Part shown: in pieces, positions 10,368-48,174 of the stretch
How the letters are laid out: every line of letters begins with the position of its first letter
Position numbering within the stretch: position 1 is the first letter of the stretch
The notes under the pieces: model-generated
What the model saw: the letters and a program-made list of their open reading frames with translations, nothing else
Databases searched by the model: none
What the model was told of the DNA's origin: nothing
Translations under genes and position numbers: made by a program
Origin: Candidatus Woesebacteria bacterium RBG_16_42_24
GTDB taxonomy: Bacteria; Patescibacteriota; Microgenomatia; UBA8517
DNA length: 49,912 nt
Assembly: GCA_001792115.1 (NCBI GenBank)
Contig: MGFX01000001.1
Span: forward strand, 188,694 to 238,605
Direction: 5' to 3'

Positions 10368-11306
10368 ATGAGGAAGATAAGAACGATAATCTTAATCCTT
10401 TTAGGATTTGGAATTTTGACCGGCGCTGGATTGGCTCTATTGGGTTATCTTAGAAGCGGAAATGCGGGGCTTCTCGTTGAGTCAATACCTTCCTCTTCAG
10501 TTTATATCGCCGGCGAACAGGTAGGCCGTACTCCGTATGAGGCAAATCTCGATCCGGGTGAAGTAGTTGTGAAGTTGATCCCCGACGCAACCGATCGGGC
10601 ATTAGCCCCATTTGAGACAAAGGTAACATTGAGTTCTGGAATAAAAACCAATATCAGAAGGGAATTTGGGGAGACGGAAGAAACCTCTGTCGGCGAGATT
10701 GTTTCTTTTGAGAAAATTGGAGGTAAAGAGGTGAGCATTTCGGTAGTAACAACTCCAAATTCAGCCCAAATATCAGTCGATGGAACCGTCCGAGGTTTTG
10801 CCCCTTATAAAACCACCTCTATTACCCCAGGAGAGCATTCGTTGGTTATTTCTTCCCAGGGATATATCGATAGAACGATTACAGTTAAAGCGACAATTGG
10901 ATACAGATTAACGATTGTTGTTAAGCTTAAACCCAGTGAGGAGGCAGAGCCTCCTGAAGAAATAGAAGGGGAGGCGGTTGAAAAGAAGGTAATGGTTGAA
11001 ATATTATCCACTCCGACCGGGTTTCTGAGGGTTAGGGAAGCAGCCTCAACCGCGGCTAAAGAATTGACACAAGTAAAGCCGGGCCAGAGATTTCCATTTG
11101 TTGAAGAAGATACCGAGAATAACTGGTTTAAAATTGAATACCTGCCTGCGCAGGCAGGCGAAGAAGGAAAAGAAGGTTGGGTAACCGGCCAATATGCTAA
11201 AAAGGTTGAAGTTGAGCCGACAAAGGCGGCAAGTCCGTCAGCTACCCTCACCCCAACCAAAAAGCCTACGCCAACCCCGACACTAGTCCCTTCAGTTACT
11301 CCTTAG
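10368..11306 (+). CDS. Secreted/anchored PEGA-domain plus SH3b-domain protein with Thr-Pro tail
   Basis: N-terminal TM, two PEGA-like repeats (VYIAGEQVGRTPY; ISVDGTVRGFAPY), TGFLRVRE...WFKIEY...EGWV SH3b motif. Confidence 0.82.
   Translation: MRKIRTIILILLGFGILTGAGLALLGYLRSGNAGLLVESIPSSSVYIAGEQVGRTPYEANLDPGEVVVKLIPDATDRALAPFETKVTLSSGIKTNIRREFGETEETSVGEIVSFEKIGGKEVSISVVTTPNSAQISVDGTVRGFAPYKTTSITPGEHSLVISSQGYIDRTITVKATIGYRLTIVVKLKPSEEAEPPEEIEGEAVEKKVMVEILSTPTGFLRVREAASTAAKELTQVKPGQRFPFVEEDTENNWFKIEYLPAQAGEEGKEGWVTGQYAKKVEVEPTKAASPSATLTPTKKPTPTPTLVPSVTP
11141..11158. repeat. 18-bp perfect palindrome in frame inside the SH3b domain
   Basis: CCTGCCTGCGCAGGCAGG encodes LPAQAG. Confidence 0.85.
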
Positions 11307-12235
11307 ACAAAAGAGGAAATACCTCCATAAAGTATGAAGACGACCATGGCGATCCAGACGCCAACTGCCACAAGTAGTGCAACATCCGTTAGAAGAATTT
11401 TCTCCGGGGATTCGCTTCTATCTTCAAAAATCAGACTTTCGTAGCGCATTATCCCGAAAATTACAACGGGAATGGTAACCATTAGAAGTTTATTGACAGT
11501 AGTTGCTTTTGAAATCTCGGCAAGGAATAGCCAAATCGGAAGGGTTGCAGGTGGGGATTCAAAAAATGTAAAAAGGGACCAACTCATCCAAGAAGCATTT
11601 CCAAACATTGTAACGTAGGAGTTAAGGAGTTCACTTTTGTAATGAGTTAGGCTTTCTCGCGTTGTTCCACTCTCGGGAAGGATGCTAAGTTCCGCCCTTC
11701 TTTTACCAGAAGCCAAAAAAAGCGCAACCGATATAACGCAAAGCAGGAACCAAACGGACAAGTGTGCGTTAATTACAACGGCACCGGCATACACTCTTAT
11801 TACAAAACCCGATGCAATAATGAGAATGTCTATAGTTGCAAGCCTTTTTAGGCCTAGGCTATATACAACTTGAACGACAAGGTAGACAAGAACCAGGAGA
11901 AAAAAAAGAGGGTGAAGTAGGCGTGCAATATAAAGAGATGAAAGGGAAAAAAGAAGAGACATGAGGAGCGCAAAAGGAACTGAAAGCGTGCCTTTAGCAA
12001 TAGGTCGATACCTTTTTATCGGATGTAACCTGTCGTGTTTAGCATCCATAATGTCGTTTAAGATGTAAGTTCCCGAAGTTACAAGGCAAAAAGAGACAAA
12101 AGCCCAGACAACCTGAATGAAATACGATTTGATAAAAAAGGTTCCGGAAAAAATTAAAGCGGCAAAAAGCGCGAGGTTTTTAACCCAGTGAAGGGGCCGA
12201 GCTATTTTGACGATTTCGAGCGGTAAGTTAACCAT
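11303..12235 (-). CDS. UbiA-family prenyltransferase (decaprenyl-phosphate phosphoribosyltransferase-like)
   Basis: ARPLHWVKN, YILNDIMDAKHDRLHPIKRYRPIA, GKRRAEL; start moved to ATG 12235. Confidence 0.88.
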   Translation of the reverse strand: MVNLPLEIVKIARPLHWVKNLALFAALIFSGTFFIKSYFIQVVWAFVSFCLVTSGTYILNDIMDAKHDRLHPIKRYRPIAKGTLSVPFALLMSLLFSLSSLYIARLLHPLFFLLVLVYLVVQVVYSLGLKRLATIDILIIASGFVIRVYAGAVVINAHLSVWFLLCVISVALFLASGKRRAELSILPESGTTRESLTHYKSELLNSYVTMFGNASWMSWSLFTFFESPPATLPIWLFLAEISKATTVNKLLMVTIPVVIFGIMRYESLIFEDRSESPEKILLTDVALLVAVGVWIAMVVFILYGGISSFV

Positions 12236-13278
12236 AAAGTAAGTCCTCCAAGAAGCGCGGCAATACCGACCATTGTATATAACTTTGAGGCAGTCTTCAA
12301 ATTTAAGGCCAAGATTCCCAGGATGAAAGTTATCAACCAATAAAAAACTGCCACTTTAGGCTTCCCCCAGCCGATATCAAGGAGTCTATGGTGAAGGTGC
12401 CCCCGATCTCCCCAGACAGGAGATTTTCCCGCTGCAACTCTTCTAATAATTGTATAACCGGTATCAATGAGTGGGACTCCTAAAACTACCATCAGGGTTC
12501 CAACCTTAGTTGTCGAAAGGATGGAAAGAACAGCAAGCAGGTATCCTGCGAGAGTAGCCCCTCCGTAAGAAGGCATTATTTTTTGAGGGTAAATATGCCA
12601 AGGAAGAAAACCAAGATATGCACCAGCTGTAATTACCGCAAGGATAATTACCGGCCATTGGGCAATATCCGCTGAAAATCCGAGAGAAAGAGCGGCGATT
12701 GTCAGGGCAGCGATAACGACGACTCCGGTTAGTTGCCCATCCACACCTTTAGCCCCCATATTGAGCATATTCATCATGAGTACTATCCAAATCAAGGCGA
12801 AGGAGTCAGAAAGGACCCAAATATTCCTTGCCTCTCCCAGTAGATTCAGACTAATCTGCGGGTGTGAAAGGTCGATAATCCCGCCCGATGGGTTTGAGAT
12901 GAATGAAATCCCAATGCCAGCGATGATTGGAGCGGCAGCTGCGGCAAATCCGGCGAGCAACCTCAAGTAGGGGTTCAAGTCGTATTTATCATCGGCAAGG
13001 CCCATAACAATGATGATAGTTGCCCCGGCCAAGATGCCGACGAGATGTTTATCAAGGGGTAGGAAAATTAAGGCCGAGATAAGGACCCCAAAATAAATTG
13101 CGAGTCCCCCGCCTCTGGGAGTAGGATATGTGTGGATTACTTTTGGATGGACGTGCTTGGCCGGGTCGTCGATCATCCCCCAAGCTTTGGCGAGCTTGAT
13201 TACAAGGGGCGTGGCCAGGAAGGAAACTATCGCCGCAAGTGCAAGTGGTAAAAGTACAAATTCGAATAAATTCGGCAT
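12202..13278 (-). CDS. MraY/WecA-like glycosyltransferase family 4 (polyprenyl-phosphate hexose-1-P transferase)
   Basis: PTPRGGGLAI, GLADDKY, GVDGQL, KIMPSYGG, DRGHLHHRL. Confidence 0.92.
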   Translation of the reverse strand: MPNLFEFVLLPLALAAIVSFLATPLVIKLAKAWGMIDDPAKHVHPKVIHTYPTPRGGGLAIYFGVLISALIFLPLDKHLVGILAGATIIIVMGLADDKYDLNPYLRLLAGFAAAAAPIIAGIGISFISNPSGGIIDLSHPQISLNLLGEARNIWVLSDSFALIWIVLMMNMLNMGAKGVDGQLTGVVVIAALTIAALSLGFSADIAQWPVIILAVITAGAYLGFLPWHIYPQKIMPSYGGATLAGYLLAVLSILSTTKVGTLMVVLGVPLIDTGYTIIRRVAAGKSPVWGDRGHLHHRLLDIGWGKPKVAVFYWLITFILGILALNLKTASKLYTMVGIAALLGGLTLWLTYRSKSSK

Positions 13279-13650
13279 TTATATGTTTCCGACAAGAAAA
13301 ACGATTTTTAGAGTCGCAATGGTTGAAAAAAAAGAAGAAGCAACCCCCGCCAGTATCAGGGTTTTTTTAAGAAATTCATCCTCAACCACCAATCCGAGTA
13401 AAAAATTGATACCTAAAATTCCTGAGGAGGTAAGCGAAGGCAGGATTAGTGCCCAAGACGGAGCAACCACTTTTTCAGCCTCGGCCATACCGTAATATAA
13501 AGGTATTTGGGGAGGTAGAATAGGTTGGATAATAAAGGCGATCACCCCTACCGCAAAATTTAGAATAAATGCAATGATAATAAATTTCATTAAGGGATAG
13601 CCCGCAACTTGTGACTCGGTAAGAGCATTTACCTCCCAAAACGTTTTCAT
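13279..13650 (-). CDS. Small membrane protein (start uncertain)
   Basis: Three hydrophobic segments and LPPQIPLYYG motif; lies within the glycosylation operon. Confidence 0.65.
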   Translation of the reverse strand: MKTFWEVNALTESQVAGYPLMKFIIIAFILNFAVGVIAFIIQPILPPQIPLYYGMAEAEKVVAPSWALILPSLTSSGILGINFLLGLVVEDEFLKKTLILAGVASSFFSTIATLKIVFLVGNI

Positions 13651-13678
13651 GGATTGTCCGATTGTATTAAAAAGGGTG

Positions 13679-15175
13679 TCAGCGAGCAAGGAGAGCCCGG
13701 ATAGTGGGATTTGCTAGGTAGTAGATTTGGGCTCCATCTACCTCGTCGATCAAAATGTAATTTTTCCTAGTAAATAACGAAAGCTCCTTAAATCCCGGAG
13801 CATTTGGGAGAATTACAATAATGGCGGGGTTGTCGAATCCTAATATCCTAATAGTTTCCTCTTGCGAGAAAAAGTCGTTAATGTGATAAGTCGCGACGTA
13901 TTTTAGGGGCGGGAACCTCCGGGTAAGTGCGTAAATTGGCGGGCTATCACCCCAGACGAAAATTTTATCCTTTTTACTGGTTGACTTTAGTACTACGTCG
14001 GCAATTTTGTAGTTCCTGTTTACATTTCCATCGAACTTTGCGAAATACGCTTCCTTACCTATCCTGCCGACTGCGAACTCTAAGAATCGGCCGTAGTAAC
14101 TAGTTGTTGGGTAATAGTAGAACTTGTAGTAAACAGGAACAAGAAATGTGAGAGTTAGAGGAATTATTACCAAGACCTGCTCAAGAGTCTTGTCGGCTAG
14201 TAGTATTGCCAAAAGGAAAGATAAGGGGGGAACCGATTGAATCAGGTAGTGAGTGTATGGACGCTCAGAGAGAGTTGCCGCAAAAAGTGAAAAAAGTACC
14301 CAAAGACTTAGAAGCACAAAGGTTTTTGAAAGCTTTGCACGCTTAAGATAAAGAATTAGAGTTCCCAACCCGACTACCCCGGCCCGGATAAGAAGTGGGG
14401 CATTTTTGACCAGGAAAGGTTGGGAAGAGACTACCGGTCTCCAGGAAGACAAATATCCGACGTTTTGTAAGAAAGCGGCAACGACATACTCGGCTAGCGC
14501 TCCCTTTAGGAAGTACCAGAGGAGACTTAGAGCGATTGGTGAGAAGAGTCCAAGTAAAAGAAAGAAGGTTTTTCGGACAAAAGCCTTGATTTCTTCTTTC
14601 CCGCCTTTCAGATAGATTAGCCAGAAGGCAAGTATCACAGGTATATCGAAGGCAGCAGGAACCTTAAAAAGTGTAGCCGCGGAAAAAAATAGTCCTGCAA
14701 GAAATAAGTTTTTGAAATCAAGCTTGCGGGTCAGAAGAATCAAAAAAGCGACAAGAGTGGGCCCTATCATAAAAACTTCGGCATTGGCAATCTGACCTTC
14801 GAGAAGAGGAAGGGTTGTAAGGAGGGCGAATATTACCGTGGCTACTTTCTGAACTTTTTCTCTTTTAGGAAGGATTACTTGGGCTAGCTTCCAGAAAATA
14901 TAAATAGTCGCCAGATTCCAAAAAGCCAAGATCGCTCTTAACCAAAATACGTTTCCGGCAATTGCCGCAATGATATAAAGAAGCGGAGGTTTATTGTCGT
15001 GGATGTCCCTATAAAGGGTCATTCCCTGCCTCATCGCCTCACCGAGGGTTAGATAAATCATTTCATCCCCATAAGAGAAAGGTTCAAAAAACGAAGGAAT
15101 CCTTAGGATGATGACAACTGCGAAAAGGATTATTAACCAATTAGGGGCGTGAATTTTATCGAGAATATTTCTCAT
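13679..15175 (-). CDS. GT-C fold glycosyltransferase (ArnT/PMT-like)
   Basis: Polytopic; GDEMIY, LYRDIHDNKPP, ANAEVF, C-terminal periplasmic FVWGDSP domain. Confidence 0.8.
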   Translation of the reverse strand: MRNILDKIHAPNWLIILFAVVIILRIPSFFEPFSYGDEMIYLTLGEAMRQGMTLYRDIHDNKPPLLYIIAAIAGNVFWLRAILAFWNLATIYIFWKLAQVILPKREKVQKVATVIFALLTTLPLLEGQIANAEVFMIGPTLVAFLILLTRKLDFKNLFLAGLFFSAATLFKVPAAFDIPVILAFWLIYLKGGKEEIKAFVRKTFFLLLGLFSPIALSLLWYFLKGALAEYVVAAFLQNVGYLSSWRPVVSSQPFLVKNAPLLIRAGVVGLGTLILYLKRAKLSKTFVLLSLWVLFSLFAATLSERPYTHYLIQSVPPLSFLLAILLADKTLEQVLVIIPLTLTFLVPVYYKFYYYPTTSYYGRFLEFAVGRIGKEAYFAKFDGNVNRNYKIADVVLKSTSKKDKIFVWGDSPPIYALTRRFPPLKYVATYHINDFFSQEETIRILGFDNPAIIVILPNAPGFKELSLFTRKNYILIDEVDGAQIYYLANPTIRALLAR

Positions 15176-16461
15176 AATTTTTCATTCCCCACACCATTTA
15201 GTGTGGGGGTGTACCAGACGAATTTCAGCGTTCCAAAAACCCTCTCGCTTTCTTTAGTATAACCAGGCAAGCTAATTTCCTCAATGGGGCCGCTCGTAAC
15301 TACCCCTACTCGTCCAGAGACCGAAGGAAGGGTTGTGATAATATCGTCTTCCTCCATAAGAGCGGTACCTACAAAAAATGGAAGTTCACCTCCTCCTGGC
15401 ACATAAATAGGCCCTCCTATGCCGTAATATTTAGTTTCCCAGATATGGTGCGTTCCGTTTGAATACCAGTTCACGATAAAATCGCCGTCATCCAGGGTAG
15501 CTTTGACGTAAGTTGCGAGGTCCCTAAAGGGTCTTTTAATGGGATGGGTGAAATAGTAAAAGGTGGCTATTAAGAAAAAAATTAGAGTAATTGCGATAAA
15601 ATACTTTGAGAACTTTTGCATTTGAGATCCCGCAAGGAGCATGGCTCCGGGGATTGTGTATAGAAGGTACCTGTCAAAAAATATTGACGAGAATTTTTGC
15701 GAAATTAACCAAGCGAAAGCTATGGGGCCGGCAAACCATAATAGAAGAAATACACTTTTTTCCAAGTTTTTCTTCCAGTCTCTGAGAATTAGGGCAATGA
15801 GGCTAATATTGAGGTAGGTAAGAATTAATTTTCCCAGGTCTGGGACGCTCGGGGTTCCCAACCAAAAACCCCCGCCGACCATTCTGGTTTGGTTATATAG
15901 CGGGATTAGCCAAGGAGTATATAAAATTCCTATCGCTACGAAAGATTTAAGAATAGAATACGCGACCTTTTTTTCCCCCCAAAAGAACTCTTTTAGGAAC
16001 CAAAGGCCTTGAATAAAAACCGCAAATATTGAGAAATGGTGTGAATATAGTGCCGCGGAAGTAGCCAAAACGTATCCGACCCACTTTTGGGTGAGAAAGA
16101 AATACATCGAAGCAGTTACAGCCGCAGCGAGGATCGAATACATCCTCCCTTCAAAGGCATAGATAAAGAAGAATGGGTTAAGAAAGGTCAAAACCGAAGC
16201 AAGAATTGCCGTTTTTTTATCCCAGAGATGGTTGGCAATTTTATAAACAAAAAAGACCGCAATTAGATAGTAGAGGAAGGAAAGACTTCTTACTGCAATT
16301 TCGCTTGTCCCAAAAATCTGAAACCAGATGTGTTCAGTGAGGTTATATAGTGGAGGGGAAGTATCGCGGGCGATGATACTAATGATTTCGGGGATAGGCT
16401 TCATAGAAAGAATTGCAGAGAAAGCTTCGTCTCCCCATAAACTGGCAGTAAATTGATTCAC
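15172..16461 (-). CDS. GT-C fold glycosyltransferase (GT39-like)
   Basis: SLWGDEAFS, DTSPPLY, EGRMYS, FFDRYL; GTG start. Confidence 0.82.
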   Translation of the reverse strand: MNQFTASLWGDEAFSAILSMKPIPEIISIIARDTSPPLYNLTEHIWFQIFGTSEIAVRSLSFLYYLIAVFFVYKIANHLWDKKTAILASVLTFLNPFFFIYAFEGRMYSILAAAVTASMYFFLTQKWVGYVLATSAALYSHHFSIFAVFIQGLWFLKEFFWGEKKVAYSILKSFVAIGILYTPWLIPLYNQTRMVGGGFWLGTPSVPDLGKLILTYLNISLIALILRDWKKNLEKSVFLLLWFAGPIAFAWLISQKFSSIFFDRYLLYTIPGAMLLAGSQMQKFSKYFIAITLIFFLIATFYYFTHPIKRPFRDLATYVKATLDDGDFIVNWYSNGTHHIWETKYYGIGGPIYVPGGGELPFFVGTALMEEDDIITTLPSVSGRVGVVTSGPIEEISLPGYTKESERVFGTLKFVWYTPTLNGVGNEKL

Positions 16462-16514
16462 AAATTCAGTTTAGCATATGGAAATTAAACGAAGGACTGA
16501 TATACAATTATTTG

Positions 16515-17159
16515 ATGGACCCCGTACCTCCGTCAGTCCCCATGCCCCAACAGCCGCCTGCGTCACCTTCAGAGCCTACTCCTAACCAAATGCCCGCCAC
16601 CCCCCAAAGTAATATTTCGGGAGGAACAAATAAGGGAGGATTTATCGCCAGAGCAGCAGCATCAATTGCAGACGGATTTGTAATAGGATTTGCTACGACC
16701 CTACTATCCATGCTTCTAAAAGCCGTAGGACTTGGTTCCTCAATTTCACAAATAGTTAATGGGCTTATCTATATTGTTTATGTAGTTTTGGCAATTGGGC
16801 TTTACGGTAAAACCCTGGGTAAGGCCGCATTCGGCTTAAGGGTGGTAAATTACGAAAACGTAAGCCCCGGAATTCCAATGGCAATTTTACGCGAAGTAGT
16901 TGGTAAGTTTATTTCTTCCTTAGTATTAAATCTAGGATTCCTCTGGATTATTTGGGATAAAAATAAGCAAGGGTGGCACGACAAGATTGCCAAAACTTAT
17001 GTCCTCCAGGAAGTGCCATTTAAAGGATTTAAAAAGGTTCTGGCTTATATCCTGGTATTGGGTCTGCCGGTCTTAGCCATTCTAGGGATAATAGCCGTTG
17101 TCGGTGTAGTTACCCTTCTTCCTGGTCCCAGTGGTTGTGGTTTCCGTGGTTGTTTATAA
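16515..17159 (+). CDS. RDD family membrane protein
   Basis: ARAAASIAD, GKTLGKAAFGLRVV, KQGWHDKIAKT; TACAAT-N6-ATG. Confidence 0.88.
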   Translation: MDPVPPSVPMPQQPPASPSEPTPNQMPATPQSNISGGTNKGGFIARAAASIADGFVIGFATTLLSMLLKAVGLGSSISQIVNGLIYIVYVVLAIGLYGKTLGKAAFGLRVVNYENVSPGIPMAILREVVGKFISSLVLNLGFLWIIWDKNKQGWHDKIAKTYVLQEVPFKGFKKVLAYILVLGLPVLAILGIIAVVGVVTLLPGPSGCGFRGCL

Positions 17160-17170
17160 CCTACTTGCCA

Positions 17171-18661: not shown

Positions 18662-18663
18662 GA

Positions 18664-20076: not shown

Positions 20077-20101
20077 GGTTAAAGTATAGCCTCTCTTAAA
20101 T

Positions 20102-20186
20102 TAAAAAACCTCCTTACGGAGGTTAATTTCTCACTAAAAACCCTCCGCTAGGCAGTCAGCCTTTCCTTCATCGTGGAGGTTTTAGT
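20102..20186 (-). terminator. Two tandem hairpins with U-tracts after the hydrolase gene
   Basis: AACCTCC-GTAA-GGAGGTT-TTTT and CCTCC...GGAGG-GTTTTT on the minus strand. Confidence 0.6.
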
Positions 20187-20201
20187 TATCATCCGGCTAT
20201 T

Positions 20202-21092
20202 TTACCACATTGAAAGCCAGGATTTAATAAGCTTGGCCGCTTCCTTTTCTTTCTCGGAGAAGCCATGATCGGCGTCGTCTACTATTTTTATTGTTGCAAT
20301 TTTACGTCTTAGGTGTTTATCGAACCATTTAGCAATTTTAACCATAGATCTATCACGAAACTCGTCTTTCTCTGCAAGTACGACGAGAGTTGGGACTTTG
20401 ATTTTCCTAAGAGCATGGGGGCTTTTGGTTGGTTCTACATAAGTAAAAATTTCCTCTTCACTATTTGGAGTATTTAGACTTAAAAACCTTTGTGCGCTAT
20501 TTAGATCAGGCCAGACTGAGAGTGGGAGTAGTTCGTTTCCCCCACCTTTCTTTACAAGTTTGGTTGCAAAGTTTTCGGCAAGATTAATTTTTTCTTGACC
20601 ATTTGCTCTTAAGGAATCAGCGTAATCACTCATTGGAGAAAGCAAAATGACTCCTTTAACCTGCCTCTGTTTGCCCCTTTTACTTAAATAAAAAATGGAC
20701 TTCTGACTTCCAGTTGAATGCCCCATTAGAAATATCTCTTTTGCACCTTGAGTTTTAGCAAATTTGACAGCTCCCTCTATGTCAAAAACACAGTCGGAGA
20801 ATTTTTCGAGGGCCGCGCCCAGAGTTTGGGAGGAATATCCTTTCTTTTTTCTTTTATCAACTCTTTTTGTTTTCGCAACTATATCGTGTCCCCGATTATT
20901 AAACGATAAGAGCGATGTAGCACTATTTATTAAAAGAGGCGCAAGGCGGATACCCGTACCGGATAAAAAGCTGCCAGTTAGGCCGTGGATAAAAACGATT
21001 ACTCTTTTTGGTTTTTCCGGGCCGAACCAAAGTCCGTCTAGAAGAAATCTGTCAGGTGTTAATAGTTTTACTATTCTAGCTACGGGCTCCAT
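20202..21092 (-). CDS. Alpha/beta hydrolase (DUF1749-like)
   Basis: VFIHGL, GHSTGSQK nucleophile elbow, EKDE, ADHGF. Confidence 0.88.
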   Translation of the reverse strand: MEPVARIVKLLTPDRFLLDGLWFGPEKPKRVIVFIHGLTGSFLSGTGIRLAPLLINSATSLLSFNNRGHDIVAKTKRVDKRKKKGYSSQTLGAALEKFSDCVFDIEGAVKFAKTQGAKEIFLMGHSTGSQKSIFYLSKRGKQRQVKGVILLSPMSDYADSLRANGQEKINLAENFATKLVKKGGGNELLPLSVWPDLNSAQRFLSLNTPNSEEEIFTYVEPTKSPHALRKIKVPTLVVLAEKDEFRDRSMVKIAKWFDKHLRRKIATIKIVDDADHGFSEKEKEAAKLIKSWLSMW

Positions 21093-21138
21093 ACTTAATT
21101 ATCTAATAAATTTCTTTACGACGCAGACGCAAAGAGGT

Positions 21139-21489: not shown

Positions 21490-21547
21490 AGTTTATTGGT
21501 TTAAATTAGTCGCAGTATAACACTTGTTATGGGCTGCGCAATAGATT

Positions 21548-25056: not shown

Positions 25057-27987
25057 GTGGTAAAGAAAAAAATTGAGGACAAGAAATTTAATAAAGAGCA
25101 AATTGAGGCAATTAAGTATGGAAATGGTCCACTTCTTATTATTGCAGGGGCGGGGACGGGCAAAACCACAGTTATCACCGAGAGAATTAAATACCTCATT
25201 CTTTCCAAGAAAACCAAACCCGAAGAAGTTCTCGCTTTAACCTTTACAGAAAAAGCAGCTAAAGAAATGGAGGAAAGAGTGGATGTGGCAATGCCTTATG
25301 GTTATACACAAATGTGGATAAGTACCTTCCACTCCTTTTGCGATCGGGTGCTAAGGCGGGAGGCGCTCCACATTGGCCTTGACCCCAAATATCACCTGGC
25401 GACCGAGGCAGAGACGGTTCAGTTTATTAGAAATAATCTTTTTAAATTTGATCTCGAATACTTTAGACCCTTAGGCAATCCCACGAAGTTTGTTGGAGGA
25501 ATGTTGCAACACTTTTCAAGGCTTCAGGACGAAGATGTGACACCCAATCAATATATTGATTGGGTGAACTTAAAACCCAAAACTCAAAACTCAAAAGTTT
25601 CGCAAGAAGAGAAGACAGAACTTAAAAAATGGAAAGAACTAGCCCGAGCATACAAGACCTACGACGAACTAAAAACAAAGGAGGGTGTGATGGATTTTGG
25701 GGACCTGATAGTTAAAGCCCTGAAACTTTTTAAAAGTAGGCCAAATATTTTGGGACAGTATCAGAAACAATTTAAGTATGTTTTGGTCGATGAATTCCAG
25801 GACACTAACTACGCGCAAAACGAATTGGCAATTTTACTTGCAGGGAAAGGTAACCTGCCTGCCGGCAGGCAAGGAAATATTACTGTCTGTGGGGACGATG
25901 ACCAGTCAATATATAGATTCCGTGGCGCCGCAGTTTCAAACATTATTCAATTTAGAAAGAATTTTCCAAAATCAAAGATTGTTGTTCTTACCAAGAATTA
26001 TCGATCCACACAAGAGATTTTGGATAGGGCATATCAGCTTATTCAACATAATAATCCGGATAGACTCGAGGCGGTCGAAAAAATAGACAAGAAGTTAGTA
26101 TCCCAAGTTGAAAAAGAGGGCAAAGAAATAAGTTTTATTCATGCGGATAGGGTAGAGAATGAAGCGGATGTGGTTGCCAAAGAAATTAAAAAACTCAAAG
26201 AAGATGGGGGCTACGAGTGGAAAGATTTCGCAATTTTGGTAAGGGCCAATAATCATGCGGAACCTTTCGGCAGAGCTCTCGCGCGGCACGCAGTTCCGTA
26301 CCAATTTCTTGGGCCAGGGAGACTTTTTAAGCAATCCGAAGTGGTCGACCTTATTTCTTATCTCAGGGTTCTTTATAACCTGGAAGATTCTGTTTCATTT
26401 TATAGGCTACTAGCAATTGATTATTTTGATATTAACGCACGCGATCTTGCGACAATCGGAAATAGCTCAAGAAAATTAAATAAAACTTTTTTCGAGGTAT
26501 GCGAGAATATCGACAATCTTTTTGTATCGAAAGAGACAAAAGAAAAAGTCAAAAAGATTTTAGAAATAATTGGAAGGCACTTAAAACTTGTTAGACGCGA
26601 AACAGCGGGGCAGCTCCTTTATTATTTTCTCTCCGACACGGGACTTATGCAAAAAATGCTTTCGCCCGACTCCGCCGAGGCGGAAAAAAAAGCGACAAAT
26701 ATTTCCAAATTTTTCGACAAACTGAAAACCTATGAGGTGGACCACGAGGACGCGACCGTTCCTGCGGTAGTTGATTGGCTGGAATTATCTTCCGAGCTAG
26801 GGGAGTCACCCTTGGCGGCAGATGTCGATTGGGTTAATGTAAATGCGGTTAACATTCTGACTGCTCACTCCGCAAAAGGCTTAGAATTTCCGGTCGTATT
26901 TTTAGTGAACTTGGTTGGCCAAAGATTTCCAACAATTGAAAGAAGGGAACAAATTCCAATCCCAGACGCACTCATAAAGGAGGTTCTGCCGGTCGGCGAT
27001 TACCATTTGGAGGAAGAAAGGCGGCTTTTTTATGTGGGGATGACGAGAGCTCGGGATATTCTTGTCTTTAGTGCGGCCGATTATTACGGGGAGGGTAAAA
27101 GAGAAAAAAGGCTGTCCCCTTTTATTTTTGAGTCGCTTGGAGATTCGGCTGTTTCAGCCGAACAAACACCCGAAAGCGGTCAACAGTTAAGCTTTCTGGA
27201 TTACCGACCGATTGCCGCCGAATTAACGAATCAACGAATTAACAAATCACGATTACATATCGACTACTTGTCCTACTCCCAAATCGAAACCTTTAGGATT
27301 TGTCCCTTACATTACAAATTAAAATATATTTACAAAATTCCCACTCCACCTTCTTCCTCACAAAGCTTTGGGAACAGTTTCCATGCGACAATGAAAGCTT
27401 TTTACGAGGCCTTAGTGAGAAAAGAAAAACCTTCGGAGAAACTAATGTATAGGGTTCTAAAGGAAAACTGGATAAGCGAGGGTTATCTAAATGCTAGACA
27501 CGAGGAGGGGTCGTTTGAAAAAGCCAAAAGATTTTTAAAATATTATTTGAAAAATACTTTTGACCCGAAAATTTCACCCATTTCTATGGAGCAGCCTTTT
27601 GTTGTTCGGCTCGACGGCCTTCGGGTCGGTGGAAAGATGGATAGGGTGGATGTGCATAAAGATGTGCTAGAGATAATCGACTACAAAACCGGTGCAAATC
27701 CGCTCCCCCAAAAAGAAGCAGATAAGGATTTGCAACTTTCCATTTACGCCCTTGCGGCAACCTCTATCCCGGAATTTCCTTTTGCCAGGGTTCCGGAAAA
27801 GGTGAAACTCTCGCTATATTATTTTGACACTCCGCAAATTGTTTCGACAACTAGGACGAAAGAGCAATTGAAAGAAGCAATAAAAATTATCGAGGATTAT
27901 AAAAGGCAAATTGAACACTCGGACTTTAGATGTTCACGCGGATTCCTTTGCGAAAACTGCGAATACTCATTTTTGTGTAGGACCTGA
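25057..27987 (+). CDS. UvrD/Rep-family helicase fused to a C-terminal PD-(D/E)XK nuclease with four Cys
   Basis: AGAGTGKT, DEFQD, GDDDQSIY, HSAKGLEF, EERRLFYVGMTRA; nuclease GKMDRVD...IIDYKTG, QLSIY; CPLHY...CSRGFLCENCEYSFLC. Confidence 0.92.
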   Translation: MVKKKIEDKKFNKEQIEAIKYGNGPLLIIAGAGTGKTTVITERIKYLILSKKTKPEEVLALTFTEKAAKEMEERVDVAMPYGYTQMWISTFHSFCDRVLRREALHIGLDPKYHLATEAETVQFIRNNLFKFDLEYFRPLGNPTKFVGGMLQHFSRLQDEDVTPNQYIDWVNLKPKTQNSKVSQEEKTELKKWKELARAYKTYDELKTKEGVMDFGDLIVKALKLFKSRPNILGQYQKQFKYVLVDEFQDTNYAQNELAILLAGKGNLPAGRQGNITVCGDDDQSIYRFRGAAVSNIIQFRKNFPKSKIVVLTKNYRSTQEILDRAYQLIQHNNPDRLEAVEKIDKKLVSQVEKEGKEISFIHADRVENEADVVAKEIKKLKEDGGYEWKDFAILVRANNHAEPFGRALARHAVPYQFLGPGRLFKQSEVVDLISYLRVLYNLEDSVSFYRLLAIDYFDINARDLATIGNSSRKLNKTFFEVCENIDNLFVSKETKEKVKKILEIIGRHLKLVRRETAGQLLYYFLSDTGLMQKMLSPDSAEAEKKATNISKFFDKLKTYEVDHEDATVPAVVDWLELSSELGESPLAADVDWVNVNAVNILTAHSAKGLEFPVVFLVNLVGQRFPTIERREQIPIPDALIKEVLPVGDYHLEEERRLFYVGMTRARDILVFSAADYYGEGKREKRLSPFIFESLGDSAVSAEQTPESGQQLSFLDYRPIAAELTNQRINKSRLHIDYLSYSQIETFRICPLHYKLKYIYKIPTPPSSSQSFGNSFHATMKAFYEALVRKEKPSEKLMYRVLKENWISEGYLNARHEEGSFEKAKRFLKYYLKNTFDPKISPISMEQPFVVRLDGLRVGGKMDRVDVHKDVLEIIDYKTGANPLPQKEADKDLQLSIYALAATSIPEFPFARVPEKVKLSLYYFDTPQIVSTTRTKEQLKEAIKIIEDYKRQIEHSDFRCSRGFLCENCEYSFLCRT
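25854..25874. repeat. 21-bp palindromic element in frame in the helicase
   Basis: CCTGCCTGCCGGCAGGCAAGG encodes N-LPAGRQ-G. Confidence 0.85.
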
Positions 27988-28030: not shown

Positions 28031-28270
28031 ATGACAAGCGTATCCATTACTGACCTGAAGACAAAACCAGCCTCGGTTATTTTAGCTTCGGAGGATTATC
28101 CTGTTGCAATTAAAAGTAGAGAGAAGACCAAAGCCTACCTTGTAGGCAGAAGCCTTTTTGAGAAGATGATTGCGTACATTGAGGATGTTGAGGACGTTAA
28201 AGCTGTTGAGAAAGCAGATTTAAGCAAGGCTACAGATTTTGAAGAATTTGCCAAAGAGCTGGGGATATGA
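28031..28270 (+). CDS. Phd/YefM-family antitoxin
   Basis: VSITDLKTKPASVI...PVAIKSREKTKAYLV N-terminus, acidic C-terminus, ATGA overlap with the toxin. Confidence 0.8.
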   Translation: MTSVSITDLKTKPASVILASEDYPVAIKSREKTKAYLVGRSLFEKMIAYIEDVEDVKAVEKADLSKATDFEEFAKELGI

Positions 28271-28539
28271 ATCTTAAGATTATTCCTCAGGCGAAAAAGC
28301 AAATCAGAAAACTTTCTAAAACTACCCAAATTATAGTTGGCAACAAGATAAGACAACTGGGAACAGGAAACTTTAGCAATTCCAAAAAACTGGCTTCCTA
28401 TAAGGATGTTTTTAGGATTAGATTGGGTGATTATCGGATTGTTTATATCCTTAGATCAGATAGTGTTTATATAATCCTAGTTACACACAGAAGAGAAGCT
28501 TACAAAAAGCTTGCTATTTATTACAAACATTTTAAATAG
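28267..28539 (+). CDS. relE: RelE/ParE-family toxin
   Basis: AKKQIRKL, FRIRLGDYRIVY, HRREAY. Confidence 0.88.
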   Translation: MNLKIIPQAKKQIRKLSKTTQIIVGNKIRQLGTGNFSNSKKLASYKDVFRIRLGDYRIVYILRSDSVYIILVTHRREAYKKLAIYYKHFK

Positions 28540-29919: not shown

Positions 29920-30954
29920 CTAGAAACTTGGTTTGACGAATTTACTTTTGGCGCGAAGAACTATCCAACGAATGGATTCGACGACTCGATAAGCATAATA
30001 AAGAGGTTTATTTATAACCAAGTCCCAGGTTCCCAAGAATTCTACAACCTTAGGGCTATACCCTTCTTTAAACCGGGTAAAGCCTTTTCCTTCCTCGCGA
30101 CCCCAGAGGTCAAAAGTTTTAAGTCCCAAAGATTTCCCAAAACGTATTGCCTCCCACATAATTAGATTGTTTGCCATGACGTTTTTGTATTTTTCGGTTG
30201 ATGCACCGTAAGGATAGTAAAGGAAATCTTTCCAAACAAAAACAATCCAAGTGGTAATTATTTGGCCTCCTCGCCCGCCATCGCTACGCTCAGGCGTTGC
30301 GGGCGGGTTATATCTTGCGACAAGAAGTCGGGCTATTGGAGTTTTTGAGTTTTTGAGTTTTTGAGTTTTATGTAAATACTTCCACATCAGCCGGTGGTAT
30401 TTTTCGGAATGGGCGTAAAAACCTTGACGGATAACTGTTTCGCGGGTAAGTTTGATATATTTTTCAAATGCTTTCTCGGAATTATCCTCCACAACTTCGA
30501 CTCCATTTTTCTGGGCGAGTCGGATGTTATAACGGGTCTTGGGATTAAAGCTTTTTAAAAGTTCTTCTTCTGGTTTGGTTAAATCAATCCAAAAAGTAGT
30601 TGGGGTAAATAGGGTTTTGCCAGGAACGCAGCCATTTTCGCGGAGAAGTTTAGTTAATTTATTCTTCGTTAATTCGTTCGGAGCTACATGGTTGGGTTCA
30701 AGTTTTATAAAAATCAAATTTTCGTCTTTTGCGAGTTTTTTTAATTCGTTAAGCGCCTCTTTTGTAGGAGCAGGCCCCTTTTCAAAAGCGGCTATCTTAT
30801 AAGGAAGAAATGGAATTTTATGAAGAGTTAGTTGTCCGAAGGGAAGCCTTACCACTTCGTTTCCCCAGGCTTTTCTAAACTCTCCCCATTCCCAAGTTTG
30901 AAGTGGGTGGGACGCGACATTATTTAAGACCTCTGGTGATATTTGGTCAGCCAT
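29920..30954 (-). CDS. FemX/FemAB-family lipid II:amino acid ligase
   Basis: HPLQTWEWGEFR, KTRYNIRLAQKNGV, YYPYGAS, MWEAI, FDLWG, GFTRFKEGY; start moved to 30954. Confidence 0.92.
   Translation of the reverse strand: MADQISPEVLNNVASHPLQTWEWGEFRKAWGNEVVRLPFGQLTLHKIPFLPYKIAAFEKGPAPTKEALNELKKLAKDENLIFIKLEPNHVAPNELTKNKLTKLLRENGCVPGKTLFTPTTFWIDLTKPEEELLKSFNPKTRYNIRLAQKNGVEVVEDNSEKAFEKYIKLTRETVIRQGFYAHSEKYHRLMWKYLHKTQKLKNSKTPIARLLVARYNPPATPERSDGGRGGQIITTWIVFVWKDFLYYPYGASTEKYKNVMANNLIMWEAIRFGKSLGLKTFDLWGREEGKGFTRFKEGYSPKVVEFLGTWDLVINKPLYYAYRVVESIRWIVLRAKSKFVKPSF
30269..30307. repeat. 39-bp hairpin element in frame in the FemX-like gene
   Basis: Minus strand CCCGCCCGCAACGCCTGAGCGTAGCGATGGCGGGCGAGG; related copy at 48137-48174. 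Confidence 0.85.
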
Positions 30955-30977
30955 GTCTATATGATACACTGGAAGGG

Positions 30978-31604: not shown

Positions 31605-31606
31605 TT

Positions 31607-44419: not shown

Positions 44420-46147
44420 ATGGTTGGGAAAATTATTTCAAAAGGGAAAAAGCTTATCTTTTCGGCCCAAACTTCGGTCCTTTCTGCCGCCACGATAATA
44501 ATGCTTATGGTTGTTGCCTCAAGGGTCTTGGGGTTAGTTCGCCAGAGGGTCTTGGCACACTTTTTTGGTGCAGGGGAGCTTTCTTTATTCTTCGCGGCCT
44601 TTAGACTTCCCGATCTGGTTTTTGAAGTTTTGGTTTTTGGAACATTTTCTTCCGCATTTATTCCTGTATTCACAAAAGCCTTAAGAAAAGGGAGGAAAAA
44701 TGCATGGAACACTGCAACTTCTGTTACAAATATTGGGGTTCTAGTCTTTCTTTTTGTAGGGATTATTCTAGCTGCCTTTGCAAATCCTTTATATAGCCTT
44801 TTTGCACCGGGTTATGATCTCGCCCAAAGAGCCCAAGTAGTCAAAATTGCCAGAATTCTTTTTGCTGCGCAGGGTTTTTTCGTTGTGAGCTACGTGTTAA
44901 CCAGTGTTCTTGAGTCTCTGAGGCGCTTTTTAGTACCAGCCCTAGCGCCCCTTTTTTACAATTTGGGAATAATCCTTGGCACCATACTTTTGGTAGGCAA
45001 ATATGGACTTCTTGCCCCCGCCTTGGGAGTACTTTTAGGAGCTTTCCTTCACTTCTTAATTCAACTGCCGCTCGCGATAAAGCTTGGTTTCAGATTTTTT
45101 CCGAAAATTGTAGTTACTAAAGACGTAAGAACCATCGGGAAACTCGCCCTACCTAGAATTATAGAGGTTAGTTTCCTGCAAGTCTCGAAATTGGTCGAGC
45201 TTTCTTTAGCTTCAATTATTTCAACGGCTTCTTATACATACTTCACATTCGCAAGCACTCTTCAATTTCTTCCCGTTGGTCTTTTTGGAGCTTCGGTGGC
45301 CAAAGCGGCCCTACCTACTTTAGCCAGGCAGGAAAATGATCCTTCGGAATTTCGAAAGACTCTTTTTGGAGCACTCTACCAGATAATATTTTTTGTTGCC
45401 CCCATGGCAGGCGTTCTAATTATTTTGAGAATTCCTTTGGTGAGGCTTATTTTCGGTACAGACATCTTTAGTTGGGAGTCAACGGTACAAACCGGACTCG
45501 TTGTTTCGGCATTTGCGTTGGGGGTGGTTTTTCAATCCGCAGTTTCAATCCTGGCCCGGGGTTTCTATGCCCTTCATGACACAAAAACCCCAGTTGTCGT
45601 TTCAATCTCCTCAATATTGGTCATAATCGTCATGGATTTTGTTTTTATCAAAGGTTTCTCCCTTCCGGTTTGGGGACTAGCGTTTTCTTTTTCAATAGGA
45701 GCCGCTATACAAGCAACAATCCTCCTTTATCTCATCAATAAAAAGACTTCAGGGAAATCATTCTTGGCCTTGCTTGTTTCTCCTTTCAAAATTTTGTTAG
45801 CTTCTCTCGGTTCAGGAACGACGATGTTTTTTCTACTTAAAATATTCGATAGAAGCGTTTGGGTGAAGAGGCTTTCGTTCTTAGGGCAGATAGAGGCGAC
45901 CAGAATAATTCCCTTCGAAAGATTTGTTCTTGATACACGCTACACCGCGAATCTTATTGCACTCACGTTTTTGGTTACTAGCGTTGGAGTATTTATTTAT
46001 CTTGCCATAAGTATGCTGCTTGGTTTGAAAGAGGTCTGGGGTTTCTTTGGGCTGGCCAAAGGGATTTTAATAAGACATAAAGTTCTTGCAATTCCCAAGA
46101 AGGAAACAGAACCCGTTTCACCCCCACCGACGGATACTCAGACCTAG
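44420..46147 (+). CDS. murJ: Lipid II flippase MurJ (MviN)
   Basis: SRVLGLVRQ, AAFRLPD, FSSAFIPVF, LARGFYALHDTKTPV. Confidence 0.95.
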   Translation: MVGKIISKGKKLIFSAQTSVLSAATIIMLMVVASRVLGLVRQRVLAHFFGAGELSLFFAAFRLPDLVFEVLVFGTFSSAFIPVFTKALRKGRKNAWNTATSVTNIGVLVFLFVGIILAAFANPLYSLFAPGYDLAQRAQVVKIARILFAAQGFFVVSYVLTSVLESLRRFLVPALAPLFYNLGIILGTILLVGKYGLLAPALGVLLGAFLHFLIQLPLAIKLGFRFFPKIVVTKDVRTIGKLALPRIIEVSFLQVSKLVELSLASIISTASYTYFTFASTLQFLPVGLFGASVAKAALPTLARQENDPSEFRKTLFGALYQIIFFVAPMAGVLIILRIPLVRLIFGTDIFSWESTVQTGLVVSAFALGVVFQSAVSILARGFYALHDTKTPVVVSISSILVIIVMDFVFIKGFSLPVWGLAFSFSIGAAIQATILLYLINKKTSGKSFLALLVSPFKILLASLGSGTTMFFLLKIFDRSVWVKRLSFLGQIEATRIIPFERFVLDTRYTANLIALTFLVTSVGVFIYLAISMLLGLKEVWGFFGLAKGILIRHKVLAIPKKETEPVSPPPTDTQT

Positions 46148-46155
46148 GTTGCTAA

Positions 46156-46220
46156 CCCATTCGACTTCGCTCAGGACAAGTCGGCCTCGCTTCCGCCGGT
46201 GTCCTGAGTGTAATCGAAGG
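46156..46220. repeat. REP-like long hairpin directly after murJ
   Basis: TTCGACTTCGCTCAGGAC (46160-77) versus GTCCTGAGTGTAATCGAA (46201-18), 15/18 complementary. Confidence 0.75.
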
Positions 46221-46278
46221 ATTTCTTGCGCGCACTTCTTATTCCCCTTATGGCGTAATGTTGAATATAAATATTTAA

Positions 46279-47424
46279 ATGCTAAAGTCATGTTACATGT
46301 TTAAGCTTAAAGACAAAGATATTATTAAATGCTGTTTGCCAGTCCTGGAAAATCTGTTCAAGAAGCACAAAGAGACATATATAAATCTTTTCTTTTGGGA
46401 AAGAGATGTGGACATTAACAATCTAAATCTGAGACCACTTTTAGATACTGGACTTATTAAAAAAGTGGGTAATAAATTTAGGGCAAATGTTTTTATCTTC
46501 CCTTTATCGGGAAAATTTATTGTCTGCGATTTCTTGATTTCTCACCACAGAGTTAAAGATGGTCGCTATCTTAGAAGAAAAGATGACGTATGGCCTATTT
46601 TTGCATACGAATCGCCATATATTGCCAAAAAAGCAATTGTCAAAAAAGGCGACTATGTTCTGGATTTGGCGACTGGCTCAGGAATAATTGCTCTTTTTTG
46701 TGCTGAGAAAGCTAAAAAAGTGGTAGGGATCGATATAAATCCAAAGGCTATAAATTACGCTCAATTTAATGCGATATTAAATAATTTGGAGGATAAGGTT
46801 GAATTTAGATTGGGAGATTTATTTGAACCCGTCAGCGCTGAAAAATTTGACTTGATTGTGTGGAACGGCCCAACAATTGCTACACCGGATTTACCCAATA
46901 AATACCCAATATATTGTTTTGGAGGAGCAGACGGCTTAAATTTTACAAGAAAATTTATTGATAGAGCTCCTAATTATTTAAGTCCCAAAGGAAGAATGCA
47001 GTGGCTAGATCCATGTTTGGGAAATGAGACCAGCCCTAAATCTCTGAAAATAATTAAAGAGATTTGGGGAAATAGCAGTCTTAGTGTGACTTACGAACAA
47101 AGAGTCAAACCCAATCCTCTTTACAGTCTTTACGAAAATGTCGGTAAGTTTCTTCTTAAACCGACAAAAGGGTTACCTAGACCTTTGTGGATTGAGCCTT
47201 TGACAGGCAAAGAACTTTCCGACTGGCTAGATTTTCTCAAAAGAAATAATTTCACCCATATCCACGCCGGAATGTATAGAGTTTATCCTTCAGAAAGCTT
47301 TAGAATTACCAAAACTAGGCCAAAGAAGATTTTGTTCCCTAGAATGAATTATTTACCTCAAGAGTGGCACTTTTTAAGCTTTTCAAGGATCAAACAGTTA
47401 TTGAGAATCTGTGAGGGATATTGA
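46279..47424 (+). CDS. Class I SAM-dependent methyltransferase (HemK/MTS-like)
   Basis: VLDLATGSG, GIDINPKA, GDLFEPV, FDLIVWNGP, GGADGL; start may be 46297. Confidence 0.82.
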   Translation: MLKSCYMFKLKDKDIIKCCLPVLENLFKKHKETYINLFFWERDVDINNLNLRPLLDTGLIKKVGNKFRANVFIFPLSGKFIVCDFLISHHRVKDGRYLRRKDDVWPIFAYESPYIAKKAIVKKGDYVLDLATGSGIIALFCAEKAKKVVGIDINPKAINYAQFNAILNNLEDKVEFRLGDLFEPVSAEKFDLIVWNGPTIATPDLPNKYPIYCFGGADGLNFTRKFIDRAPNYLSPKGRMQWLDPCLGNETSPKSLKIIKEIWGNSSLSVTYEQRVKPNPLYSLYENVGKFLLKPTKGLPRPLWIEPLTGKELSDWLDFLKRNNFTHIHAGMYRVYPSESFRITKTRPKKILFPRMNYLPQEWHFLSFSRIKQLLRICEGY

Positions 47425-47523
47425 CCCCAAAAAAACTCTGTCAAATTCTAATTTCTCCCGTATTTTCGGCATTAGAAATTATATAAATATATATATAAAT
47501 ATGGGGTATATAATTCCGCCGAT

Positions 47524-47973
47524 ATGGAAAGAAAGATTAGAAGAACATTTAGTCGGGAAGCCAAAGCCAAAAAGGAGAGGGAAATGGAATATGGAAGCTT
47601 GGCACGGGATATTATCGATGCTATTGAAGCCAAAATCCTGGAATCTGGCAAGCATGAATTTAAAATTCCTTTCGACTCTTATTTGGTTATGGGTGGAATA
47701 GCTAAATGTGGTGTATGGACGTCCGGAGTCGGCACACGAAGGGTAGTGATAATCGAGGAACCCGAGTTTGCTGATATAAGGGCCGAAAGAGGTGTAACAA
47801 TTATAAGTGAGGATTCTGACACTTTTTTCCCCTTTGTCCGGTTTAAAGAGGAAATTTATGAAGGCAGTAACTTAACAAAAAGTATTTACTCTGACAAAGA
47901 TGCTACGTTCGATCTCCGACCAAGAATGTTGCGTTTTTTGGAGGACATAAAAAGGTGGGAAATAGTTGCTTAA
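47524..47973 (+). CDS. Hypothetical protein
   Basis: 149-aa ORF with TATAAT 9 nt upstream of the ATG. Confidence 0.55.
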   Translation: MERKIRRTFSREAKAKKEREMEYGSLARDIIDAIEAKILESGKHEFKIPFDSYLVMGGIAKCGVWTSGVGTRRVVIIEEPEFADIRAERGVTIISEDSDTFFPFVRFKEEIYEGSNLTKSIYSDKDATFDLRPRMLRFLEDIKRWEIVA

Positions 47974-48040
47974 CAACCGACTGCAAAAAACGATCTATTC
48001 CGCTGGCGCCAGCAAACCCGAGCGAATATCCTTTTGGGCA

Positions 48041-48174
48041 GTGCTGAGCGGAGTCGAAGTACTTGACCCATTCGACTAAAGCTCGGGGTCGACGCCCCAC
48101 CCATTCGCTCTTCGAGCCGTTTACGGATAGTACTGACCACGTCCGCATCGCGTACGCGAAGCGTTTCGGGCGGG
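48041..48174. repeat. Composite intergenic repeat cluster (REP-like hairpin, 40-bp dispersed element and CCCGCC-family element)
   Basis: 48041-88 resembles 46156-220; 48095-134 matches the reverse complement of 8614-53 at 34/40; 48137-74 resembles 30269-307. Confidence 0.75.

Follow-up and report, generated by a model that had tools for sequence, protein, structure and literature searches.

Repetitive extragenic palindromes (REPs) and REPINs are imperfect palindromes with a GTAG-type head. They are extragenic, usually number hundreds per genome, and flank the gene of a REP-associated tyrosine transposase (RAYT; TnpA_REP, a Y1 HUH enzyme). The highly iterated palindrome HIP1 of cyanobacteria has a length of only 8 bp and probably arises through substitutions in sequence that is already present. 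Rickettsia palindromic elements (RPEs) have approx. 100–150 bp and are located in frame in unrelated housekeeping genes (Ogata et al. 2000, summarised in PMC10969869). [quoted passage not shown] The GC clusters of yeast mitochondrial DNA (mtDNA) have approx. 30–50 bp, and the AG/TAG repeats at their flanks are regarded as target duplications; some GC-rich palindromes of mtDNA are bypassed in translation (Magnusiomyces) (PMC8811140). Within a stretch of 49,912 bp (hereafter the window) from Candidatus Woesebacteria bacterium RBG_16_42_24 (contig MGFX01000001.1), four copies of ultra-short, GC-rich palindromic repeats were found that belong to two related families, F1 and F2. Three of the copies are located in protein-coding genes and are insertions.

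Four palindromic copies and their empty sites

The window has a G+C content of 42% and the inserts one of 71–74% (0.71 and 0.74 for the two inserts of the syntenic region). Copies 1 and 2 (Table 1) both trace to the F1 core, as seen from the DNA of 80 Microgenomates genome loci and from metagenomes. This core is a 20-bp perfect palindrome with the halves CCTGCCTGCC and GGCAGGCAGG, i.e. (CCTG)2CC followed by GG(CAGG)2. F1 occurs in two further sizes, an 18-mer in which the central CG is missing and a 21-mer with one base added at one end. Copy 1 corresponds to the core minus the central CG and was inserted after codon position 2 (TA/C). Copy 2 differs from the core by an added G and one G>A change; its 21 bp include a perfect 16-bp palindrome and split an AAA lysine codon (AA/C). 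F2 elements are longer with approx. 39 bp, have ends of the type CCYGCCYGC...GCRGGCRGG and an inner hairpin of about 20 nt, and are approx. 75–90% alike, both the pair in the window and copies elsewhere. The F2 termini CCCGCCCGC are related but not identical to the F1 termini CCTGCCTGC; the F2 ends CCCGCCCGC...GGCGGGCGAGG resemble those of F1 with C replacing T. Copy 3 also splits an AAA lysine codon (AA/C), and its DNA hairpin has a calculated energy of -14.2 kcal/mol (z -3.65 versus shuffles). The intergenic copy aligns with copy 3 and with F2 copies in the loci L022 and L051, and its folding is no better than that of shuffles. Rfam and tRNA scans of the window gave a tRNA-Cys as sole match, and the palindromes match no Rfam family. 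In dinucleotide shuffles of the window, the number of matches expected at up to three mismatches was 0.00 for the 20-mer and 0.01 for the 18-mer.

These four sequences had been reported in a preliminary description of the window that was made from the DNA letters alone. All of them were confirmed at their positions, together with the coding lengths of 18, 21 and 39 bp, which are all multiples of three. The statement that the insertions follow an A at codon position 2 is correct for all three coding copies of the window, but the wider family prefers only the phase and not the base. Shared termini with a different centre, as described there, apply fairly well across the two families, but not within one family, copies 1 and 2 being F1 and copy 3 and the intergenic copy being F2. 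An F2-like copy is indeed present in the intergenic region. Its length of 38 bp is a boundary choice because no empty site is available.

The coding copies were compared with the best 120 listed orthologues per host gene and with three syntenic genomes (L002, L004 and L005). The helicase insert is located between motif II (DEFQD) and motif III (GDDDQSIY). Standard, uninterrupted loop spacing was found in 118 of 119 other listed orthologues, mostly the spacing of the window minus 7 residues; the distance between the two motifs is 27 residues in most of the best 120 orthologues, 29 in a subgroup and 34 in the window only. When the 21 bp are removed, GGT AA(C...GG)A AAT turns into GGT AAA AAT and the protein reads GKGKNITV, which is the orthologue consensus. 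The insert is missing from all three syntenic genomes. It is present in eight out of eight members that cover the site in a 90%-identity cluster (JGI, NCBI, ENA and Logan data) and is therefore not an assembly artefact.

The FemAB site is empty in 110 of the 120 listed orthologues. Without the 39 bp, the window gene reads YKGQ, and the syntenic relatives have YKGE, YKGK and YKSQ. On the DNA level, TAT AAA GGA/AGC of the three syntenic relatives corresponds to TAT AA(39 bp)A GGC of the window. For the SH3 protein, 75 out of 103 measurable orthologues (120 listed) have an empty loop of 11 residues (EYEEGKEGW), and 22 have a loop of 17 residues; the empty site GAATAC/GAAGAAGG was found in L006 and many others. 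The AlphaFold2 (AF2) model of this protein (mean predicted local distance difference test score, pLDDT, of 84.9) places LPAQAG in a loop between the strands 253–259 and 268–273. Within the 23-kb regions of the window and the three relatives, 14 lineage-specific indels of at least three residues were counted, and the two of the window are the sole GC-rich palindromic ones among them. It had been stated that exact removal restores family-like motifs; this is the case, and empty-site orthologues were found for all three coding copies.

Other length differences were observed close to these sites. In another Microgenomates lineage (P0083/L001; L001 2740–2790), the same helicase loop has an unrelated 30-bp GC-rich palindromic insert that contains GGCCCTCGAGGGCC and encodes SGPRGPQARG. 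The helicase orthologues P0003, P0018, P0019, P0023, P0085 and P0113 (approx. 1325–1350 aa) carry an intein (PF14890) directly after GDDDQ of motif III; the palindrome site is situated a few residues upstream of it, and the window gene is without intein. In the FemAB gene, an 8-bp tandem repeat, (GTTTTTGA)x4, is located at 30331–30370, approx. 25 bp from the F2 insert. It encodes KTQKLKNSKT, and the length of this region varies among orthologues.

Table 1. Palindromic copies, their host genes and further genes of the window
Feature	Position	Strand	Details
F1 copy 1, 18 bp, perfect palindrome	11141-11158		CCTGCCTGCGCAGGCAGG; in host gene 1; encodes LPAQAG
F1 copy 2, 21 bp	25854-25874		CCTGCCTGCCGGCAGGCAAGG; in host gene 2; encodes (N)LPAGRQG
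F2 copy 3, 39 bp	30269-30307 (best placed)	-	CCCGCCCGCAACGCCTGAGCGTAGCGATGGCGGGCGAGG (gene strand); in FemAB gene; encodes (N)PPATPERSDGGRG
F2-like degenerate copy, intergenic	48137-48174 (boundaries uncertain)		Upstream of hrcA; no long open reading frame over it
Possible third family, 16-bp perfect palindrome	42472-42487		TCCGCCAGCTGGCGGA; in P/T/S-rich tail of small membrane protein; encodes TPPAGGS
Host gene 1: membrane-anchored PEGA + SH3_3 protein	10347-11306	+	Pfam, AF2 model
Host gene 2: UvrD/PcrA-type helicase with fused PD-(D/E)XK nuclease	25057-27987	+	Pfam
Host gene 3: FemAB-family peptidoglycan bridge-forming transferase	29920-30969	-	Pfam
VanW, solute-binding protein, GroES/GroEL, HhH-GPD glycosylase, M23 peptidase, tRNA-Cys			
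PEGA/SH3 protein, UbiA, glycosyltransferases, RmuC, NrdR			
UvrD/PcrA helicase fused to PD-(D/E)XK nuclease, ParE, two FemAB paralogues, second UvrD helicase			
LytR, PilN, MurJ, methyltransferase, HrcA, GrpE			

Dispersal, recurrence and the coding filter

The elements are not restricted to the window. An F1 unit occupies site B of the SH3 gene, a second position in the loop, in L077 and, in decayed form, in L067; L078, L079 and L084 have empty orthologous sites TCCGGCTGG. F1 was also detected in GroEL (L056), in a second UvrD helicase (L039) and in other genes of L072, L025 and L058, and on metagenome contigs in the genes of RecR, RNase J, UvrA, a penicillin-binding protein (PBP) and PurH. 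An F2 relative in tsaD of L022 is identical to copy 3 at 31 of 34 positions and encodes AAPATLARSAGGR; L051 and L041 contain further F2 copies. The exact F1 pattern with a free centre of 0–2 nt was present in at least 120 metagenome stretches, and the central dinucleotide was CG in nearly all metagenome 20-mers listed, though it had been left free in the search. Viral contigs gave 76 stretches with the F1 pattern, many of them belonging to tailed phages of high GC content and some containing multiple copies, and no match to the F2 pattern. Perfect GC-rich hairpins whose stem has 8 bp or more were observed 29 times in 1.49 Mb (the window and L001–L085) compared to 3.6 in shuffles. With four copies in 50 kb, the window is far denser than its relatives.

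The hairpin excess, the shuffle expectation and the metagenome and viral matches place the copy number far above chance, which agrees with the initial assumption. Chance palindromes or a sequencing or assembly artefact are a practically negligible explanation. Nothing more than the small size of the elements speaks for it, and it is contradicted by the 0.00–0.01 matches expected in shuffles, by the in-frame helicase insert that is fixed in the JGI, NCBI, ENA and Logan cluster, by the decayed orthologous copies and by the CG centre of the 20-mers. Convergence at the peptide level was rejected as well, since the same DNA palindrome is also present in non-coding copies.

Some copies were found in peculiar arrangements. 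In L176 (980–2470), four intact F1 20-mers are located in a 1.5-kb AT-rich spacer upstream of ftsK (contig with 32% GC), and a longer inverted repeat has one F1 copy of this locus at its tip. The viral L217 has three F1 copies inside 1.1 kb. One viral contig of 29.5 kb (L248 8850–10750, L258 and L261) contains at least six F1 copies within larger nested inverted repeats; its hairpin tips alternate between F1 and GTCCGCCGCGGCGGAC, and an 80-nt inverted pair surrounds approx. 1.35 kb. In L115, the adjacent genes for RecR and RNase J each contain an F1 20-mer (11873 and 12436) with identical immediate flanks (GCTC...TTGGCGAAGG), and both copies encode FANLPAGRQGA. Judged by its sequence, a 16-bp palindrome of the window (Table 1) may represent a third family: TCCGCC-N0-4-GGCGGA occurs 27 times in the approx. 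2.9 Mb examined, often on F1-bearing contigs, and the identical 16-mer is present in L163.

Insertions also recur at the same codons. At the FemAB codon of copy 3, the same F2 element was found in five other lineages, and four more variants occur there. By parsimony, the minimum number of state changes is 12 for SH3 site A, 5 for site B and 8 for the FemAB site; these are rough counts from neighbour-joining trees of single short host proteins with the insert masked. Some alleles contain two copies (P0181 and P0199/L009), and in L009 the precise centre of an older copy is occupied by a nested one. The insert DNA is overall 92–100% identical and the host genes are 54–72% identical. In detail, the F1 18-mer is identical at 18 out of 18 positions in the window (W), L045 and L282, whose genes share 54–69% identity with 41–47% at third positions. 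The F2 39-mer matches at 36–37 of 39 positions among four FemAB alleles with 63–72% gene identity and approx. 50% at third positions. The codons flanking the insert differ between filled alleles right up to the junctions, which makes it unlikely that larger patches were transferred. The recurrence is most simply explained by a high insertion rate combined with few permissive sites, which would then be hit again and again; a real target preference at the recurrent codons is also conceivable.

These flanks also bear on a scenario without repeated insertion, in which one ancient insertion per site was followed by precise losses and by a lateral spread of the filled alleles via homologous recombination. 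It would agree with the patchy distribution, with empty alleles in between filled ones within the W clade of the SH3 tree, and with the decayed copies, which show that some insertions are old. However, no conversion tract is visible since the flanking codons differ at once next to a nearly identical insert, and no raised similarity around the insert was found in five FemAB and three SH3 alleles. The host genes are, at the identities given above, too divergent for ordinary homologous exchange, and the same elements are present at many non-orthologous sites. This scenario is thus considered very improbable.

Decayed versions were observed in sister alleles at the same SH3 site (LPAEEG, QTAQAG and QSKEAG), where no compensatory pairing was found, and the decayed copies in L283–L285 and L067 show no compensatory changes. 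This is not what would be expected of a functional DNA or RNA motif, i.e. of binding sites for a conserved protein (chromosome-organisation, regulatory or phage-related) or of hairpin signals kept by selection, for which insertion would be the origin of new sites. Such a role would explain the perfect or near-perfect identity despite saturated synonymous divergence, the clusters in spacers and on viral contigs (the four copies near ftsK in L176 and the three in L217) and the occurrence in phages. But most copies are lineage-specific and lie in loops of unrelated housekeeping genes, the helicase copy is already asymmetric, the intergenic F2 copy no longer folds, the same 23 kb of the three syntenic relatives contain none, and an Rfam match is absent. 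A functional motif is, in our opinion, an unlikely explanation on the whole.

The effect of the coding context was determined in loci with up to 52% G+C. Elements were regarded as coding by the longest open reading frame (ORF) through them, with a threshold of at least 150 codons and random positions as control; an earlier and stricter classifier with 60 open codons on each side had been replaced by this measure. An ORF of at least 150 codons was found for seven of eight 18-mers, 22 of 61 perfect 20-mers and two of eleven 19-mers, and for 74% of random 20-bp windows. The 18-mers differed from the 20-mers (Fisher p = 0.008) and the 20-mers from random positions (binomial p = 8e-10). The proposed bias in length modulo three by coding context was accordingly recovered: 18-mers are located in long ORFs and 19- and 20-mers mostly are not. 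Of the 29 copies situated in long ORFs, 20 share the phase xxC CTG CCT..., which encodes LPA... (p = 9e-5). Stop triplets are absent from all frames of F1, whose other phases, unlike the preferred one, contain cysteine codons. In F2, TGA and TAG occur one base downstream of the used phase, which is the only open one. The strict multiple-of-three rule argues for translation of the inserts.

Flanks, neighbouring genes and possible mechanism

The copies are probably non-autonomous, trans-mobilised selfish palindromic elements that are recognised via their hairpin or their tandem CCYG arms. Insertion of new copies would take place at numerous sites of the genome, with sharp ends and without multi-base target duplication, and the responsible factor would be encoded neither in nor beside the element. 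In gene-dense genomes, most of these insertions would strike genes. Selection would keep multiples of three (18 = 20-2 or 21 = 20+1 for F1 and 39 for F2), a tolerant phase and surface loops. The retained copies would be translated as short Gly/Pro/Ala-rich loop extensions and would later decay like ordinary coding sequence. Mobilisation in trans would most plausibly be accomplished by an enzyme that recognises the hairpin or cruciform or the tandem CCYG terminal repeats.

The flanks of 80 F1 copies were analysed. The ends of F1 are sharp, and an extension of the palindrome into the flanks was no more common than by chance. No flank identity was found in 44 copies, 1 nt in 31 and 2–3 nt in five; with 45%, 1-nt identity was more frequent than the approx. 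27% expected (p = 4e-4). Few units of 24–69 bp with the same termini were present, and solitary half-sites occurred at about chance level. Insertion at the apex of pre-existing hairpins was tried as an explanation and rejected, as 2 of 81 compared with approx. 1% in controls gave no enrichment. A few striking cases exist nonetheless (L112, L176, the nested copy of L009 and the repeats of phage L248).

Several results weigh against mobile elements as the explanation. A target duplication of more than 1 nt was found neither in the 80 copies nor in the filled and empty pairs of the helicase and FemAB sites, and the 80 copies had no target consensus or conserved flank, apart from a depletion of T at position -1. 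DDE transposition is accompanied by target duplication, IS200/IS605- or RAYT-type transposition by a fixed target or head and site-specific recombination by a conserved core. Given that no multi-base duplication, head or target was found, these mechanisms do not fit the data. Pfam and protein searches detected no transposase, HUH/Y1 enzyme, integrase or TnpB-like protein in the 50-kb window, and the preliminary description was right in this respect. The co-occurrence with candidate transposases or nucleases that it had suggested was not found: no gene family recurs beside the copies, and at most five of 120 listed metagenome loci share one. Neighbours shared within the viral set (portal, capsid, ParB-methylase fusion and Mu F-like proteins, several others without Pfam match) reflect related phages and not a mobiliser. 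Longer elements sharing the termini of the copies were not found, and CCYGCCYGC pairs enclosing a gene were at chance level in 2.17 Mb, which is a small and biased sample. The density in relatives is low, with nine copies of up to two substitutions from the 18-/20-mer core in approx. 1.42 Mb of other named Microgenomates loci and no copies in L002, L004 and L005 over the syntenic 23 kb. The parsimony counts are rough, and selection on the DNA motif would be another possible reason for the perfect conservation at SH3 site A.

Repair-mediated capture or templated synthesis would do without a recombinase of the element's own. Self-complementary DNA of 20 nt (F1) or approx. 39 nt (F2), or fold-back copying of a (CCYG)2 seed, would enter breaks or nicks through ligation or copying by replication and repair enzymes of the host. 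The sharp ends without target duplication beyond 1 nt or target consensus are in agreement with this, as are the size variants, which are either central (18 = 20 minus the central CG) or concern a single base at one end, the exactly central nested copy of L009 and the lack of a linked enzyme. The element's occurrence in widely differing genomes, among them those of GC-rich phages, would be consistent with a host-general process. Capture leaves unexplained, however, why the same 20-mer and 39-mer are found in many lineages, and a source template was not found. The 18-mer is the same symmetric variant at many sites, like a propagating subfamily, and pre-existing hairpin apices are not enriched as insertion sites. 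Capture during repair is the second reading, of low probability, after mobilisation in trans and before a functional motif.

As a more far-reaching and tentative proposal, the copies might be the smallest known mobile DNA elements. They would consist of hardly more than two 9–10-bp (CCYG)2 arms and be repeatedly inserted at the same permissive codons of essential genes in the candidate phyla radiation (CPR), and also in phages, without target duplication or element-linked enzyme. Either a new hairpin-directed activity or hijacked host replication or repair would then be responsible.

The closest matches of the window genes are from Candidatus Woesebacteria and other Microgenomates, which belong to the CPR. 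According to Pfam and related protein comparisons, the gene content represents ordinary housekeeping functions; 11 ORFs had no Pfam match. Upstream of hrcA (48285–49058, followed by grpE at 49058–49492), a CIRCE-like (controlling inverted repeat of chaperone expression) sequence TTAGCACTC-N9-TACTGCTAA with an imperfect right arm is located at 48213–48239, approx. 45 bp before the gene. From its sequence and position, it would be the expected HrcA operator. A ParE-family toxin gene (28267–28539) adjoins a DUF3850/ASCH gene. The toxin is missing in the syntenic relatives, and no antitoxin beside it was recognised by Pfam.

Comparison with described systems

Full-text searches gave no literature match for the exact sequences, for the peptides or for CPR or Woesebacteria together with palindromes, in line with the preliminary description, which knew of no described system of this kind. 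To our knowledge, all gene-colonising repeat elements reported so far are larger than these copies of 18–39 bp. The lower size limit of a dispersing element is thereby pushed to approx. 20 bp. Small loop insertions in GroEL, RecR, UvrA, helicases, cell-wall enzymes and other essential proteins would repeatedly originate from the elements, which may also explain part of the as yet unaccounted-for short insertions that complicate the alignment of CPR proteins. Filled and empty alleles are a ready marker for strain-level population genetics. The sharp ends without target duplication or linked gene and the re-insertion at the same codon pose a concrete question to comparative genomics and biochemistry.

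The resemblance to RPEs that had been suggested, at a far smaller size, is supported. Like RPEs, the copies are selfish palindromes that are found in frame in unrelated housekeeping genes at sites tolerated by the fold. A family-specific peptide, several coexisting families, the lack of a linked transposase and reduced host genomes are further common features. They differ from RPEs, by their description, in the lengths of 18, 21, 39 and approx. 38 bp versus approx. 100–150 bp, in the host phylum (CPR/Microgenomates), in the perfect palindrome of F1 without a loop and in the recurrence at the same codon in many lineages.

With REPs and REPINs they share the size class of approx. 20–40 nt, GC-rich hairpins, a non-autonomous and dispersed nature and the presence of several families per genome. 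In contrast to them, no conserved head or fixed flanking dinucleotide was found in the 80 copies, the density is low, and three of the four window copies and many copies elsewhere are coding. A Y1_Tnp/RAYT gene was not found in the 50-kb window and did not recur near the copies; the search covered the window and the copy-bearing stretches.

Similar to the GC clusters of yeast mtDNA and the palindromes of Neurospora mtDNA, short GC-rich palindromes of multiple families spread in a genome of lower GC content (PMC8811140). The in-frame insertions lead to protein length polymorphism as in var1 of yeast, and the mechanism of the GC clusters is itself still unknown (PMC8811140). The host is a CPR bacterium and not an organelle, however, and AG/TAG terminal direct repeats are absent. 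Like MITEs, the copies are non-autonomous, have terminal inverted repeats and can occupy genes (PMC10969869). They differ from MITEs as there is, as a rule, no target-site duplication of 2 bp or more and a parent element was not found; F1 corresponds to a MITE shrunk to its two 10-bp ends. Unlike the palindromic elements derived from IS200/IS605 (palindrome-associated transposable elements, PATE), they have no fixed tetra- or pentanucleotide target 5' of the insertion. HIP1 is likewise a short palindrome that is abundant in coding regions and conserved across lineages, but the orthologue comparison shows added DNA in the present case.

In their behaviour, the copies are like RPEs and the GC clusters of yeast mtDNA, and in size they are nearest to REPs. 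They lack, however, features that define each of these systems, namely, the length of RPEs, the head, extragenic location and high copy number of REPs and the target duplication of MITEs and GC clusters, and there is a real chance that their mechanism is new.

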